From contig JAYENL010000093.1 of assembly GCA_034722055.1 (NCBI GenBank), positions 29,622 through 89,173 of the forward strand: a stretch of 59,552 bases of DNA, given 5' to 3'. The stretch comes from Armatimonadota bacterium. Lineage in GTDB: Bacteria; Armatimonadota; Zipacnadia; Zipacnadales; UBA5352. The position numbers were made by a program, and so were the translations under genes. Shown here piece after piece: positions 52,556 to 59,552 of the stretch (positions are counted from its first letter, which is position 1; each line of letters starts with the position of its first letter). The notes beneath the pieces were generated by a model, which saw nothing but the letters and a program-made list of their open reading frames with translations, was not told the origin of the DNA and did no database searches.

Positions 52556-53236
52556 ATGGCAGGACGAGCCCTGCTCATCATGGCCTCCGGTGAGGCCAGG
52601 GAGCATACCGCACGGGGGCTGGCGGAGCGTTGTGTCGCGGTGGAGCTGTCGGACGACCTCGAGCGCGCTCTCTCCAGCCCTCCGCGTGAGGTGGACGTGA
52701 CGGTCGTCGATCTTGACATCAGCGGGGCGGGGACTGAGGAGACCTTCGATCAGGTCCGCACCGTCATCGGGGCTGGACTGATAGCGCTCGGGGATCGCCG
52801 GGGGCGGGCCGACGCCGTCAGCGTGCTCAAGGCCGGCGCCGATGACTTCATCCCGCCGCCTCCCCATCCCGCCGAGGTGGTCGCCCGCGTTCGCGCCCTG
52901 CTCCGCCGCCTGCGTGAGTACTGCGGTCGCCCGCAGTCGCTGATCGATCTCGGCGACGTCCGCGTGAACTGCGAGCGCCATGAGGTCACCGTCCGCGGCC
53001 GGCCCGTTGACCTCACGCCCAAGGAGTTCGACCTGTTGCGCGAGCTGGCCCGGAGCGCCGGAGAGCTCGTGCCCCGCGAGGACCTGCTGCAGAGCGTCTG
53101 GGGCTACGATGAGTCCATCCGGAGCAGGACCCTGGACGTGCACATCGGCCGCCTGCGCAAGAAGATCGAGCGCGATCCGTCCCGGCCGCGCCTCATCGTC
53201 ACTGTGCCCCGGGTCGGGTACCGTATCGCCGCCTGA
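52556..53236 (+). CDS. OmpR/PhoB-family response regulator with atypical receiver domain
   Basis: wHTH LTPKEFDLL...VWGYD...RTLDVHIGRLRKKIE...TVPRVGY; degenerate receiver. Confidence 0.85.
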   Translation: MAGRALLIMASGEAREHTARGLAERCVAVELSDDLERALSSPPREVDVTVVDLDISGAGTEETFDQVRTVIGAGLIALGDRRGRADAVSVLKAGADDFIPPPPHPAEVVARVRALLRRLREYCGRPQSLIDLGDVRVNCERHEVTVRGRPVDLTPKEFDLLRELARSAGELVPREDLLQSVWGYDESIRSRTLDVHIGRLRKKIERDPSRPRLIVTVPRVGYRIAA

Positions 53237-54431: not shown

Positions 54432-55541
54432 ATGATCGGCGAGGAGCTCGTGGACAGAGTACGCCGGGCCCGTGAGCGGCAGGGGGCTGTCATCGACCGG
54501 GTCTGCGGGGCGTGCGACAACAAGTGCTGCAAGCAGATGACCATGATGGGCAGCCAGGACCTCCGGCGCCTCGTCAAGGCCATGCTGCTGGATCCCGACT
54601 TCCAGGGGCGAGTGCGCGACGGACTGGCGCGCGTGGCCGACAGGCTCGAGCGCGATCTCCTGGTGCTGAAGCAGGTCACCGAGCTCCTGGAGGCCTCCTC
54701 CGATGAGTCCCAGGCCGACGACCTCGCCGACCTGCGCCGCAACGTGCAGCAGTGGGCCGACTTCGTGCGCTGGCTGCGCAGCGACTTCCCGCTCGACTAC
54801 GACGAGATGCGCCGCCTCCTGCACTTCTCAGCCATCCGTTCCAACACCGTCAAGGCCGTCGATCGCTTCCCCGGCGGCCTCGGCGCGCTGGCGAACCTCT
54901 CCGGCCCCGACAGCGGCTTCCAATACTCTCGCCGGCGGCTCGGGCCGCAGCGGTGTCTGTTCTACCTCGACGACCGCGGCTGCATCTGCGAGGACGCCAA
55001 GCCCGCCAAGTGCGCCAACTTCTTCTGCGTCGGCGAGCCCGACCTGCTCCAGGAGCTCCGCAAGGAGCTCAGCTTCGACGACTTCGTGATGGCCAACCTC
55101 AACATCATCGACTTCCAGACCCTCCAGGAGATGATCTCGCTGGAGCGCGATCTCGGCTCCGAGTTCATCGCCCCCAAGATCGTCATCGGGGCCTCCCATG
55201 AGCAGATCGACCGCATCGCCGCGACAATGGGGTCCGCCGGGGAGAACGTTCGCGTCCGGCGCATCGAGCGCCCCGGGTTGCGCTCCGCCGCCGAGGTGGA
55301 GCGCGAGCTGGCGGAGATCCCCGAGGGTGTGGGCCTGCTGGAGGTCTACCCCGCCATCAACGGCAACACGCTCTACGAGCTGGCCCTGGCCCTCGACCGC
55401 ATTCGCCTCCGCGACGAGCACCCCAGCTACGTCCTGGCGGCCGGCGAGCTCAAGCCCACCCCTGCGGCACACCCGGTCTGGGACGACCGTATGATGGCTC
55501 AACCCCTCGGCGCCCTGGACCTCTTCGTCATCCGCGACTGA
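54432..55541 (+). CDS. Cys-cluster (YkgJ/CxxCxxCC-like) hypothetical protein
   Basis: CGACDNKCC ... CLFYLDDRGCIC..KPAKCANFFC. Confidence 0.6.
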   Translation: MIGEELVDRVRRARERQGAVIDRVCGACDNKCCKQMTMMGSQDLRRLVKAMLLDPDFQGRVRDGLARVADRLERDLLVLKQVTELLEASSDESQADDLADLRRNVQQWADFVRWLRSDFPLDYDEMRRLLHFSAIRSNTVKAVDRFPGGLGALANLSGPDSGFQYSRRRLGPQRCLFYLDDRGCICEDAKPAKCANFFCVGEPDLLQELRKELSFDDFVMANLNIIDFQTLQEMISLERDLGSEFIAPKIVIGASHEQIDRIAATMGSAGENVRVRRIERPGLRSAAEVERELAEIPEGVGLLEVYPAINGNTLYELALALDRIRLRDEHPSYVLAAGELKPTPAAHPVWDDRMMAQPLGALDLFVIRD

Positions 55542-55737
55542 CGCTCCGCGGCCGAGCGCCCCCGCCCGCACGTCCTCCGCTGACCCGTTGCGCCTGGGTG
55601 GCCTCATGCTGTGCCTGTGCGTCCTCCCTGCAACCATTCTGACAGACGGCTGCACGAGTCCGCGAAGGACTTCAAGACACCTCCTGCGCTACGCTGGGGC
55701 TGTCTCTCACACGGCCGCGTACTCGAGGGGGCGCACC

Positions 55738-56112
55738 ATGCAGCACAACAGCGAGCGCGAGCGACGACTGGAGCGCCAGGCCGACAGGCTGATCGGCGAG
55801 AGCATCCGCCGCCACGGCCGCGGCGAGTATCCGTGCTATCAGGAGCGATGGATGGACGAGCTCGGCCGCCGGGAGCGGCCCGGGGTGGAGCGCGTGGCCG
55901 GAACCGTGGGGGCCGGGGAGATCGAGGCCAGGCTGGGAGGGATGGTCGTGGATGCACAGCTCACCCGCAGGCAGCGGATGGTCATCAGGTGGATCGTGCG
56001 CGGCATCTCACAGCGGGAGATCGCGGAGATGCTGGGGGTCTCGGAGGCCCAGGTCAGTCGCATCAAGCGCGCTGCCATCAAACGTATGCAGGCCGCCGGC
56101 GTGCTGCCGTAG
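55738..56112 (+). CDS. Small sigma70 region-4/LuxR-type HTH protein
   Basis: LTRRQRMVI.W...GISQREIAEMLGVSEAQVSRIKRAAIKRM; GAGGGGG before ATG 55738. Confidence 0.75.
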   Translation: MQHNSERERRLERQADRLIGESIRRHGRGEYPCYQERWMDELGRRERPGVERVAGTVGAGEIEARLGGMVVDAQLTRRQRMVIRWIVRGISQREIAEMLGVSEAQVSRIKRAAIKRMQAAGVLP

Positions 56113-56309
56113 CAGCGGCGTGGTGGGGGGATTCCGGGGCGCGGGCCATCACGCGGGCCGACCTGCGCATCACCGGAGCGCGAGCGTGAGCCGCGAGCTG
56201 GTCGAACACAGGACAACGGCAGGCCGGAGGGTGGTCCGGCCGGAGACCGCGCAGCGGTCTCAGTGAGACTGCCATGCAGTCTGCCGCGAGCTTGCGCTGG
56301 CGTAACGCC

Positions 56310-56500
56310 ACCCGTCCGCAGGGGCGGCACCTCAGGCCCGCGGCCGTTGTCGTGTGTGTCGTCGGCGGTGCTGAGGCCCTCGCCCCCGCGCTGTTGCCGC
56401 GACGCCGTACGGAGGGGCGGGCTGCCCAGCCCGCCCGGCCGTTCGTCGTGCCGTTTGGAGGGCGCGACTACGGGAGGTGTCAGGCACCTCTCGCGCCCGG
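56310..56500. repeat. REP-like mosaic between convergent genes
   Basis: ggaggggcgggctgcccagcccgcccg and gccgttcgtcgtgccgtttggagggcgcgactac, nearly the same as blocks in the 19-21 kb array. Confidence 0.7.
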
Positions 56501-56506
56501 GCGCTG

Positions 56507-59131
56507 CTATCGCACGCGGACGCGTTCGGGCGGCACGTTCAGCATCAGGCCGCGCTTGGGGATGGTCCGGAGCAGCTCACTCCCCTTGGGCACCGCCTCA
56601 TCGAGCTTCTTCGCCAGGCGCGAGCGGTGTGAGTAGATCTGCGCCGGCTCCACGAAGCTCTCCTCCCCCCACATGCCCTCGTAGATCGCCTCGTAGGCCA
56701 CGCATCGCTGCGGGCTCCGAGCCAGCACGCGCAGCAGCTTGAACTCCGCCGGCCGCAGCTCGACGGCCTCGTCGCCCACCAGGACGCGGTCCGGCCGCTC
56801 GCCGTCGATGATCAGCAGTTGGCCCGTGGGCCGTTCGCTCGCGGACCCACTGGCGGGCTGAGGCGGCCCACCGGACGGTTCCGGCCGCCGCCCCTCGCGG
56901 GGATCGATGGGGACTCCGCAGGCCACGGCCAGCGCCCGCGTCCCCAGCCCTGGCCCAAGCAGCCGCTGGAGCACGTCCAGGTCTGCGTTCGCCAGGGCCT
57001 CCCGGGTGCAGATGCCGGCGTCCAGCAGCGACAGGATGCGGCCTCGTCCGAGCCCCGGGATGTGCAGCCCGTGCAGCGCCAGCCCCTGCTCAGGCACGCC
57101 CGCGGCCACGCTCTGGCCCAGGCGCAGGACCGCTCCCCACTGGTCGCGGGGCCACCCCAGCTCGCGCCCGATGCGTCCCACCACCTCCACCGCCCACCCC
57201 ACCGCCTCCGCCAGCGTCGCCAGCCGACCGGCCGGGATGCGCACGGCGCGCTCGACCTCGATCGTCGGCCCCCAGCCGCGCCACTGCTGCATGGCGATGA
57301 CGATGCGGGCGGCCCGCTCCCGGCGCCGCGCGGAGGCTGAGTCCGGCGCCACCCTCGCGGCGCTTGCCAGGAGCCGCTCCACCTCCCACAGGTCATCGCA
57401 GGGAGCTGACGGCTCGGCCAGCTCATCTGACAGCGCCGCGGCCCAGCCCGGCGGCGGCAGAGGCACCGCCTGTGCCTCGTCGGTGAGCGCCGCCACCAGC
57501 AGCAGCTCCAGCTCCTCCGGCGCCACGCCGTCCGCCGCCTCGGCCGCGCGCACCAGCCCCAGGAAGCTGCGCGGCGTCAGGCCGCTGGTGCCGCACAGCC
57601 GCCCCCGGACCGTGGGCCGCCAGCCGCCCTCTGCGGTCTCCTCGACCAGGCCATGCAGCGCAGCGGCGTCCAGCGCCTCGCGCAGCTCGCTCGGCAGCAC
57701 GCCCGGAGGCAGGCCCGTCTCGCGGGCCGACAGGGTTCGCCCCCAGGCCTCCTCGATTCCACCGGGGGAGGCGGCGGCCGCGGAGCCGCTCAGGACACAC
57801 ACCTGCTGCAGGGGCGAGAGGCCCGAGAGCCGCGAGGCCAGCGGCGGGAAATCGTCGTCCACGTAGGTCGCGAAGAGCACGTGCCGCTGGACCTCCCCGT
57901 CGGCGAGCAGCACCGCCCGGCCCATCTCATCGCCGCAGCCCAGGCGGCCGGCGCGGCCGGCCATGTTCTCGAAGTCCGCTCGGCTGATGGCGCCAAGGGT
58001 GGGCTTGCCTCGCGGCCCGCCGGAGCGCCACCTGCGAGGATCGACGATCACGTTCCGCGCCGGCAGGTTCACCCCCATGGCGAGGGTGGAGGTGCAGACA
58101 AGCACCGACAGCTCACAGCGGGCGAAGGCCGCCTCCACCACCTCTCGCTCGTCGAACTGCAGGTCGGCGTTGTGGAAGGCCACCCCGGACTGCGCCAGCT
58201 CCCCCAACGACCGAGTCGCCTGCGTCTCCTCCAGCCGCTGGAGCTGTGCCACGGCGTCCTCAGCAGCCGGCAGGTCGGCCTCCCGTGCGATGGCGCGCGC
58301 CATCAGGACCGTGGAGCGCTTGTCGCGGACGAAGACCAGCACCGAGCCGTCGCGCTCGCCGAGCCAGGCCGCCACCTGGGCCATGCGCTCCCCCAGGTCC
58401 TCCGGGCCATCTGCCAGCTCCGGCCAGTCCTCCACGCCCTCCGCACCGTCATTGTGCTGGCGGAAGTGATACTCGCCATCCAGCAGCACGCCCTTGCGCA
58501 GCTCCACCGGCCGGCGGTCGTCGCGCACCAGCTCAGCATTGAGCCAGCCTGCGACCTCCTCCGCGCGCCCCAGCACCGCCGAGAGGCCCACGAGCTGCAG
58601 GTCGCTGCCCTCGGCGACGAGATCGCCCAGCAGCAGCTCCAGGCCGGGACCCCGCTCCGGGTCGCCCAGCACCTGCAGCTCATCGGCCACCACGGCTCCC
58701 AGGCTGCCCGCCAGCGCCGGACGCTCGGCCAGCAGCGCTCGCATCTTCTCCGGCACCGCCACCGCCAGGTCGAACTCCCCGCGGGCGATCTCCTCCTGCT
58801 GGTTGCGGCGGTCGCGGGTGGCGACCGTGATGCGAAGCCCCAGCGGCGCGTAGCTGGCGGTGAACTCGTGGAACCTCGCCTCCGCCAGGGCTTTCGTGGG
58901 GACGAGGTAGAGGACTCTGCGACCAGAAAGCGCAGCATGTACCGCCGCCATCTCGCCGATGAAGGTCTTCCCGGAGCTGGTGGGTGCGGAGACCAGCAGG
59001 CTCTCGCCGGCCAGCACCCCTGCGCCCACCGCGCGCTCCTGCACCGGCAGCAGCTCCGGCCCGTAGGTTCGCTCCCATGCGTCCAGTACGGCGGAAGGCA
59101 CGCCATGTGCCTCAAGTGATCTCATCAGCAT
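56507..59131 (-). CDS. Ski2/Hel308-like SF2 helicase fused to a C-terminal OmpR-type winged-helix domain
   Basis: Q-motif LLPVQ, APTSSGKT, DELQ, GLSA, FHNADL, TSTLAMGVNLPA, MAGRAGR, HhH IPGLGRGR; C-terminal LRPAEFKLL..L...MWG...HRSRL.KKL...RTIPKRGL. Confidence 0.88.
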   Translation of the reverse strand: MLMRSLEAHGVPSAVLDAWERTYGPELLPVQERAVGAGVLAGESLLVSAPTSSGKTFIGEMAAVHAALSGRRVLYLVPTKALAEARFHEFTASYAPLGLRITVATRDRRNQQEEIARGEFDLAVAVPEKMRALLAERPALAGSLGAVVADELQVLGDPERGPGLELLLGDLVAEGSDLQLVGLSAVLGRAEEVAGWLNAELVRDDRRPVELRKGVLLDGEYHFRQHNDGAEGVEDWPELADGPEDLGERMAQVAAWLGERDGSVLVFVRDKRSTVLMARAIAREADLPAAEDAVAQLQRLEETQATRSLGELAQSGVAFHNADLQFDEREVVEAAFARCELSVLVCTSTLAMGVNLPARNVIVDPRRWRSGGPRGKPTLGAISRADFENMAGRAGRLGCGDEMGRAVLLADGEVQRHVLFATYVDDDFPPLASRLSGLSPLQQVCVLSGSAAAASPGGIEEAWGRTLSARETGLPPGVLPSELREALDAAALHGLVEETAEGGWRPTVRGRLCGTSGLTPRSFLGLVRAAEAADGVAPEELELLLVAALTDEAQAVPLPPPGWAAALSDELAEPSAPCDDLWEVERLLASAARVAPDSASARRRERAARIVIAMQQWRGWGPTIEVERAVRIPAGRLATLAEAVGWAVEVVGRIGRELGWPRDQWGAVLRLGQSVAAGVPEQGLALHGLHIPGLGRGRILSLLDAGICTREALANADLDVLQRLLGPGLGTRALAVACGVPIDPREGRRPEPSGGPPQPASGSASERPTGQLLIIDGERPDRVLVGDEAVELRPAEFKLLRVLARSPQRCVAYEAIYEGMWGEESFVEPAQIYSHRSRLAKKLDEAVPKGSELLRTIPKRGLMLNVPPERVRVR

Positions 59132-59166
59132 TGCACTTCACCCCTCCGTGTGCCGACGGCCCTTGC

Positions 59167-59195
59167 AGTATATCGAACACGCGTTCGCAAGTCAA
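59167..59195 (-). promoter_or_regulatory. Sigma70 promoter for the helicase with embedded LexA (Cheo-type) SOS box
   Basis: Minus strand: TTGACT (59195-90), 17-bp spacer, TATACT (59172-67). The spacer contains CGAACACGCGTTCG (59174-87). Confidence 0.85.
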
Positions 59196-59329
59196 GGCGG
59201 AATGCCTTCAGCGTGGCGCGGCGCAGCCGGTACGCGGAGGTCTGTCCTCGGATTGCCGCCTCCAGGCAGGCCTGCTCGGAGGCGCTTGTGGGCCTCTGGC
59301 CCCAGCCCACAGAGACCCCTCTGTCGTGG

Positions 59330-59552
59330 CGCAGGCGGGCCGACCTCGTCCGGGCCTTCGGCCCGTCCTCGTGCGGCCCCTCCACGTACGAACTCGCATG
59401 CGTAGTTGCCGTCGCCGTCGGAGGGGCCGCATGAGCGCCACAGGCGCGAGGCCGGCCCAACACGCCGCAGGCGGGCCGACCTCGTCCGGGCCTCCGGCCC
59501 GTCCTCGTGCGGCCCCTCCATGTACGAACTCGCATGCGTAGTTGCCGTCGCC
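59330..59552. repeat. Tandem ~136-bp repeat of GGAGGGGC-type REP-like units (runs off the window end)
   Basis: gcaggcgggccgacctcgtccgggcc...gtagttgccgtcgcc starts at 59331 and again at 59467. Confidence 0.85.

Follow-up and report, generated by a model that had tools for sequence, protein, structure and literature searches.

What would a bacterium do with a protein that joins a Hel308-like motor to the DNA-binding domain of a response regulator? The question is raised by a 59,552-nucleotide stretch of an Armatimonadota bacterium (contig JAYENL010000093.1; the whole stretch is referred to as the window), which encodes such a protein of 874 amino acids (aa). Judging from its sequence, this protein most likely works like Hel308, yet belongs to a sister family. 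It is likely to be a hitherto undescribed repair helicase that is induced by DNA damage, and bacteria are said to have no Hel308. The favoured reading, to which a probability of about 0.6 is assigned, makes it an SOS-induced 3′–5′ translocase and annealase that would act at stalled forks or recombination intermediates, with its winged helix gripping nearby duplex.

Domain order and motifs of the helicase

The gene and the parts of its product are arranged as follows; pLDDT is the predicted local distance difference test score of the structural model.

56507–59131, minus strand: gene for a Hel308-like superfamily 2 (SF2) helicase with an OmpR/PhoB winged-helix fusion; open reading frame, 874 aa
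58568–59047, minus strand: RecA1 domain (Pfam DEAD, aa 29–188), motif I APTSSGKT intact
58673–58684, minus strand: motif II DELQ, inside RecA1
57938–58216, minus strand: RecA2 domain (Pfam Helicase_C, aa 306–398)
within 57938–58216, minus strand: RecA2 motifs IVa (FHNADL), V (TSTLAMGVNLP) and VI (ENMAGRAGR, both arginines present)
57101–57829, minus strand: Hel308 domains 3 (internal winged helix) and 4 (ratchet), about aa 435–677 with approximate boundaries, from the model and Foldseek
56942–57064, minus strand: Hel308 domain 5, helix–hairpin–helix (HhH), aa 690–730 (HHH_5)
56825–56902, minus strand: Pro/Gly/Ser linker, aa 744–769, pLDDT below 50, low conservation
56510–56815, minus strand: OmpR/PhoB-type winged helix, aa 773–874, from Pfam, model and structure search

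The frame is single and unbroken over 874 codons. Matches to DEAD and Helicase_C exceed the curated Pfam cut-offs, as do those to HHH_5 (27.4 vs 27 bits) and to Trans_reg_C (PF00486, aa 788–862; 44.8 vs 26.2 bits, E 1.3e-11). The C-terminal HhH and the Pro/Gly/Ser linker between core and tail, both named in the original prediction from the sequence, are located accordingly; R696 of the HhH domain is conserved in 115 of 116 alignment rows. PF21280 matches relatives of the helicase and is absent from the Pfam listing for the helicase itself. The AlphaFold model, built from a 43-row alignment, has a mean pLDDT of 88.4, and its low-confidence stretch is the linker. Foldseek with the full model returned archaeal Hel308/Hjm proteins as the best nine matches, followed by Pol theta and Brr2; the Hel308/Hjm alignments span about 740–770 columns with a template modelling (TM) score of 0.80–0.85 of the target (2zj8: TM 0.84, E 2e-37). 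Archaeal Hel308/Hjm proteins are also the best relatives in a sequence search of solved structures (E 1e-56). The five-domain core of Hel308/HELQ (RecA1, RecA2, winged helix, ratchet, HhH) is present. Hel308/Hjm (PDB 2zj2/2zj8, 2p6r, 2va8, 9b15), HELQ and the helicase domain of Pol theta have the same domain order and a link to DNA damage. In contrast to Hel308/HELQ, the 874-aa protein is bacterial, carries DExQ/E, HNAD and NxxGRAGR motifs, has an extra OmpR tail and is predicted to be under LexA control.

Folded alone, the tail reaches a pLDDT of 89.9. Its structure matches (VIA) are led by GlnR (Z 14.0, root-mean-square deviation 2.3 over 94 residues), VanR (Z 13.9) and BaeR (Z 13.9), and the first 33 all belong to the wider OmpR/PhoB DNA-binding family. 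The best sequence match among solved structures is 3t72, and the tail aligns with PhoB without gaps over 66 residues. The OmpR/PhoB winged-helix effector fold, on which the original prediction was to stand or fall, is matched by the tail model. The fusion itself appears genuine, given the single frame, the Pfam matches, the modelled tail fold and a PF00486 tail in 115 of the 120 best homologues listed; four of the five tail-less homologues are 568–612 aa long and lie on contigs shorter than 3 kb. A one-off read-through is ruled out by the same 115 homologues and by the occurrence of the fusion across phyla. The tail does resemble the Trans_reg_C domain of the regulator at 52556, as had been noticed, but with 37.5% identity over 72 aa and a fusion found across phyla, local capture from that gene is ruled out as well. 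Short frames that looked like natural split forms (G115, G053, L050) are frameshifts, with an N beside the break in G115, and two others (G255, G256) are partial or run off a contig. A cleanly split gene was not encountered, though no search for longer or shorter proteins was made. The gene has a GC content of 0.735, and 0.90 at third codon positions, in a genome of GC 0.68, with no hint of foreign origin.

The full Ski2/Hel308 motif set claimed for the protein is intact, but it is non-canonical at motifs II, IVa and VI. Conservation was counted over an alignment of 120 rows. The catalytic residues are retained: Walker A G54-K55-T56 in 118/118 rows, the acidic pair of motif II in 119/120 (D150) and 120/120 (E151), and G392-R393 and R396 of motif VI in 119/119. 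The fourth residue of motif II, in place of the His of DExH, is Q in 94, E in 24 and H in 1 of 120 rows. Asp replaces the Gly of FHHAGL in motif IVa in 118 of 119 rows, with a leading Phe in 108, and Asn replaces the Gln of QxxGRAGR in motif VI in 112 of 119, the arginines being kept. Among 150 representatives of the family, taken by clustering at 50%, motif II reads DExQ in 128, DExE in 6 and DExH in 8 (other 4, unread 4), and the motif VI position is Asn in 123 and Gln in 2. Four canonical archaeal sequences have DEIH/DEVH, FHHAGL/FHHSGL and xQxxGRAGR. In Escherichia coli HamB, motif VI is FRNVIGRAGR, with Asn at the Gln position as in the 874-aa helicase, and HamB is an active ATPase and helicase according to the accessible part of PMC12278908.

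Promoter and predicted LexA operator

The suggestion that the helicase is damage-inducible gains strong, if indirect, support: a LexA-type operator lies inside its promoter and is shared with SOS genes. The upstream elements are:

59167–59195, minus strand: sigma-70-type promoter TTGACT-17 nt-TATACT, the only one in 55500–59552 (0.1 expected in shuffles)
59174–59187, no strand: palindrome CGAAC-N4-GTTCG between the −35 and −10 boxes, the predicted LexA operator; one found
59141–59147, minus strand: ribosome-binding site GGAGGGG, 5′ of the ATG at 59131, read from the sequence

The palindrome CGAACACGCGTTCG sits between the −35 and −10 boxes of the helicase promoter, and 0.04 such sites are expected in the window. 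GAAC-N4-GTTC is the Gram-positive LexA box. The palindrome CGAAC-N4-GTTCG occupies the same place in all 14 family loci with a 5′ end, which are kin from one family and not independent. An operator matrix built from the boxes of 13 relatives gave 197 genome sites above 11 bits. Its first rank is dinB (IMS), the second a cassette of DUF6504 and a dnaE2-type DNA polymerase III alpha subunit, the third the helicase and the fifth uvrA; an MrfA-type helicase, darT/darG and lexA follow at lower ranks. By an operator that overlaps the promoter and is common to lexA and repair genes, recA excepted, the gene has the marks of a LexA-regulon member. MrfA, UvrD and DinG are SF1/SF2 SOS helicases under LexA; they belong to other helicase families, none with a Hel308 core or an OmpR tail, and the MrfA-type gene of this genome has a similar box.

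A change of operator between phyla is a stronger test of the LexA link than the sharing of a box within the host genome. The CGAAC-N4-GTTCG-type box was found in 8/8 Armatimonadota loci of this comparison, three of which are also among the 14 family loci, and in 67 of 1674 background windows. A different pattern, CTGAW-N6-WTCAG, fills the promoter slot in 15/15 other loci (11 Hydrogenedentota, 4 Nitrospira-labelled), a count that is circular in that the pattern was derived from those same loci; it was met in 9 of the 1674 windows used as background. Independently of that count, 5/5 Hydrogenedentota genomes (L098–L102) have exact CTGAA-N6-TTCAG after the −10 box of their main lexA; a sixth, weaker lexA-like gene is without it. 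Among six further sites, dinB, an imuA-like gene and a cytosine methylase each have one upstream, and for the other three no gene was assigned. CTGAA-N6-TTCAG is thus a candidate LexA operator of Hydrogenedentota. At the level of sequence, then, the inducible part of the original prediction is strongly, though indirectly, supported by a LexA-type promoter operator shared with SOS genes and by another lexA-linked operator in a second phylum.

The helicase gene also stands directly after lexA in three loci (L024, L050, L057), on apparent mobile elements, and directly after recA in two Myxococcota loci (L035, L047), next to a divergent WYL regulator. In the fullest of the former (L024:895-11586), a PD-(D/E)XK nuclease and AAA_24 are divergent from the lexA–helicase pair, which is followed by a sigma factor, DUF2924 and a serine recombinase. 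The two recA–helicase operons share an upstream motif, TGTGACC-N5-GTCATA (L035:520-620, L047:3620-3730), and the regulator there has the layout HTH-WYL-WCX (HTH, helix–turn–helix). Inspection by eye of the 14 family loci showed, in 13 of them, a motif GCCG(T/C)C(G/A) downstream of the −10 box (window 59151–59160, minus strand; L002–L015), often as the palindrome GCCGNCGGC; it may act as a second operator or belong to the 5′ leader. The darT/darG toxin–antitoxin pair (G000:C242:81931, L123) has a LexA-like box near its start, and recA of the host genome (G000:C36:34048-34836) seems to be the last gene of an operon.

Family, relatives and exchange of the tail

Carriers named among the best 120 homologues are Armatimonadota, Hydrogenedentota and Elusimicrobiota. 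Of 61 genomes in the host class, 40 contain a single match to the tail profile. In a sample of the phylum (threshold E 1e-15, at most 23 candidates scored per genome) the profile matched 14 of the 20 further genomes from this class, against none of the 180 that belong to other classes. Phages gave one weak match among 50,697 records, and 28 plasmid records matched, none with 80% of the query covered. Inheritance in the host class is as a single copy at a stable chromosomal site; the convergent neighbours (a 369-aa protein, an enolase-fold enzyme and a response regulator) are kept out to a 37%-identical orthologue (L053).

A tree of the RecA1–RecA2 core was made from 41 rows, drawn from the 76 rows of a FastTree tree and 7 plasmid rows; it holds only four canonical archaeal rows and is midpoint-rooted. 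In it, 31 DExQ-type rows split from the 4 canonical archaeal, 2 HamB-type and 4 other rows with support 100/99, and the helicase does not branch within archaeal Hel308. The phylogeny against archaeal Hel308 and HamB that had been proposed as a check places the helicase family in a clade apart from both. A 30-row clade named beforehand was rejected (approximately unbiased test, p-AU 0.007): L124 (DEIQ, Asn), placed outside in advance, nests inside. Of the designation as a bacterial Hel308, the Hel308-like core stands; the three motif changes, NCBIfam scores under the curated cut-offs (NF040935, 203 vs 1200 bits; NF002654, 312 vs 887 bits) and the separate clade put the protein outside Hel308 proper.

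The tails of 137 representatives with a whole core are of several types. The largest group, 86, clusters with the OmpR-type tail (83 tails score at least 20 bits on its profile), and a second, related winged-helix type (HHalign 92.4%, E 5e-7) occurs in 33. Nine have a tail like a PD-(D/E)XK nuclease, judged by eye and with no Pfam match; other types make up four and five have none. The tail is lost in a Binatia clade and replaced in other sister proteins. The sisters with a nuclease-like C-terminal domain (L056, L063, L078, L096; P0195, P0174 and others) come from Paenibacillus, Dehalococcoidia and archaea. Another sister group (L064-L094, with L065:5230-8277 and L094:5233-8235; L116:5227-8235) comprises proteins of about 1000 aa with the same DExQ motor; five of six members scanned have an N-terminal caspase (Peptidase_C14) domain. 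These proteins are scattered over many phyla, including culturable genera, and plasmid proteins of similar length and layout exist. No PADLOC model is close to the group, which is a candidate defence system.

Beside the helicase gene, the 369-aa protein (54432–55541, plus strand) has Cys-rich motifs and no Pfam or NCBIfam match, and adjoins the helicase gene across the family. A small convergent gene (55740–56112, plus strand) ends in a sigma-70 region 4 or LuxR-type HTH, for which a Pfam match was obtained only with the L018 counterpart and not with the window copy. At 59330–59416 and 59466–59552, a dispersed intergenic repeat resembling repetitive extragenic palindromes is present in two copies of 87 nt that are 98% alike; it has 32 BLAST matches in the genome, many close to contig ends.

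Function of the fusion

According to the favoured reading, LexA would block the helicase promoter until its RecA-triggered cleavage following DNA damage. The helicase would then load on a 3′ single-stranded DNA (ssDNA) tail and move 3′–5′ at the expense of ATP. By analogy with Hel308/HELQ, it would open short duplexes or displace bound proteins, and would bring strands back together by annealing. Loading at 3′ ssDNA, with brief unwinding or re-annealing, is described for Hel308/HELQ in the accessible part of PMC13623763. The tethered winged helix may grip adjacent duplex and so place or hold the motor; it can be argued that the tail is an accessory and not the output, because it is swapped or lost in sisters. 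A replacement of RecG or Mfd was rejected, as the genome keeps a full-length RecG match (654 vs 659 bits) and Mfd over the cut-off. A replacement of RecQ was rejected too: among 12 class genomes with a strong match to the RecQ zinc domain, seven have the tail and five do not.

Several observations weigh against this reading. The mean consensus share of the tail (0.58) is near that of RecA2 (0.60) and above that of core domains 3–5 (0.44–0.47); W821, V827-E828, Q831, H835 and the wing T-x-P-[KR]-[RH]-G are conserved, and Q831, with which the predicted recognition helix begins, is kept in 114 of 115 rows. Such conservation, with a near-invariant Gln, fits a specific target better than a generic clamp. 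Effector-like domains (caspase, nuclease-like) are present in sister proteins, as they are in sensor helicases. As for regulation, the 14 loci with the palindrome are related, the matrix search found no good LexA-type box upstream of recA in the host genome, rank 4 and many of the 197 matrix sites were not identified as repair or SOS genes, and neither box was found at the helicase loci of Binatia, Zixibacteria, Ignavibacteria and several other relatives. In the motor, the Gln-to-Asn change could matter, because the motif VI Gln of Prp43 and Brr2 helps to position the catalytic (attacking) water (10.1101/758169, accessible part); the corresponding part of PMC5861437 makes only a general point about motif VI variants. 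No tested precedent for His-to-Gln/Glu in motif II or Gly-to-Asp in motif IVa was found in the literature.

The best-surviving alternative, though a doubtful one, is a damage-gated transcription factor, in which ssDNA or broken ends, sensed by the motor, would toggle an OmpR domain with sequence specificity, giving a second tier under LexA. The conserved tail with its key residues and wing speaks for it; so does the same motor fused elsewhere to a caspase or nuclease-like domain, which makes it a possible sensor, and so does the mobile-element lexA–helicase pair that precedes a sigma factor (L024, L057). However, positions 834 (S/W/F/Y/Q) and 838 (R/Q/K/N/E), which should correspond to base-reading residues of PhoB, vary among rows, and the tail is lost or replaced in sisters. 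A Pfam scan of the 874-aa protein gave no Response_reg match. The winged-helix fold and backbone-contact pattern are those of OmpR/PhoB regulators and CadC/ToxR/SARP-type proteins (PF00486), whereas here the receiver, membrane or BTAD domain is absent and the winged helix is tethered to a helicase. In a wider form, equally doubtful, the Hel308-type motor would be a plug-in sensor of DNA damage whose ATP cycle gates the fused part: the OmpR winged helix here, a caspase or nuclease in sisters.

Somewhat less probable still is an SOS-induced translocase that would find stalled RNA polymerase through the polymerase-contacting loop of OmpR and dislodge it, like Eta or Mfd. OmpR/PhoB domains do contact RNA polymerase, and 3t72, the best sequence match of the tail, and 8hih, among the structure matches, are consistent with this. 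However, such contacts occur at initiation and not at elongation, the genome retains a full Mfd, and no RNA-polymerase genes are linked in the neighbour clusters. On the other side, the archaeal Ski2-like helicase Eta is reported to disrupt elongation complexes (PMC9371683).

A Hachiman-like sensor helicase directed against phages or plasmids is improbable. PADLOC HamB models do hit the core, at best with E 1e-38, and HamB (PDB 8vx9) is likewise a bacterial Ski2-like DNA helicase with Asn at the motif VI Gln position; the caspase-fused sisters, with their plasmid occurrence and patchy taxonomy, point the same way. However, several features of HamB are foreign to the 874-aa protein: DEGH, the N-terminal helical bundle, the OB-like C-terminus and the partner nuclease HamA. 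In the 874-aa protein RecA1 starts at about residue 26, and the best HamB models match from position 156 or later, so that the bundle is missing. No hamA was found directly upstream, the neighbours being without a PADLOC scan; the gene has its own promoter 36–64 nt upstream, a convergent gene downstream and no partner in an operon. The clade apart from HamB and the single copy beside constant chromosomal neighbours also speak against defence. An ATPase-poor clamp or pure annealase, in which the changes at motifs II, IVa and VI abolish translocation, is just as improbable, for although ATPase-null HELQ still anneals naked DNA (PMC13623763, accessible part), hardly any of 118–120 rows departs from Walker A, the DE pair or the two arginines, and HamB functions with the same motif VI Asn.

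PMC12278908 assigns Hel308/HELQ to archaea and animals and states that bacteria lack them. As far as their accessible parts go, a 2026 review touches on Ski2-like helicases of bacteria just in general terms (PMC13623763) and a Ski2 phylogeny covers archaea and eukaryotes only (PMC10946056); the main text of a BREX survey has no mention of Hel308, OmpR or LexA (PMC12839542). In the literature searched, outside which subscription journals and supplements mostly lay, no characterised helicase–OmpR fusion is described, in agreement with the original prediction, nor is LexA control of one.

If the favoured reading is true, a five-domain bacterial relative of Hel308 that two different operators place under LexA, in two or more phyla, would be a new family of SOS helicases, and would offer a small model for the balance of unwinding and annealing in Hel308-type enzymes. 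The linked DExQ, HNAD and NxxGRAGR changes make a natural test of ATPase coupling in SF2. Two uncultured lineages gain candidate LexA operators from the comparison, and the caspase-fused sister group, found in culturable bacteria, is directly testable.

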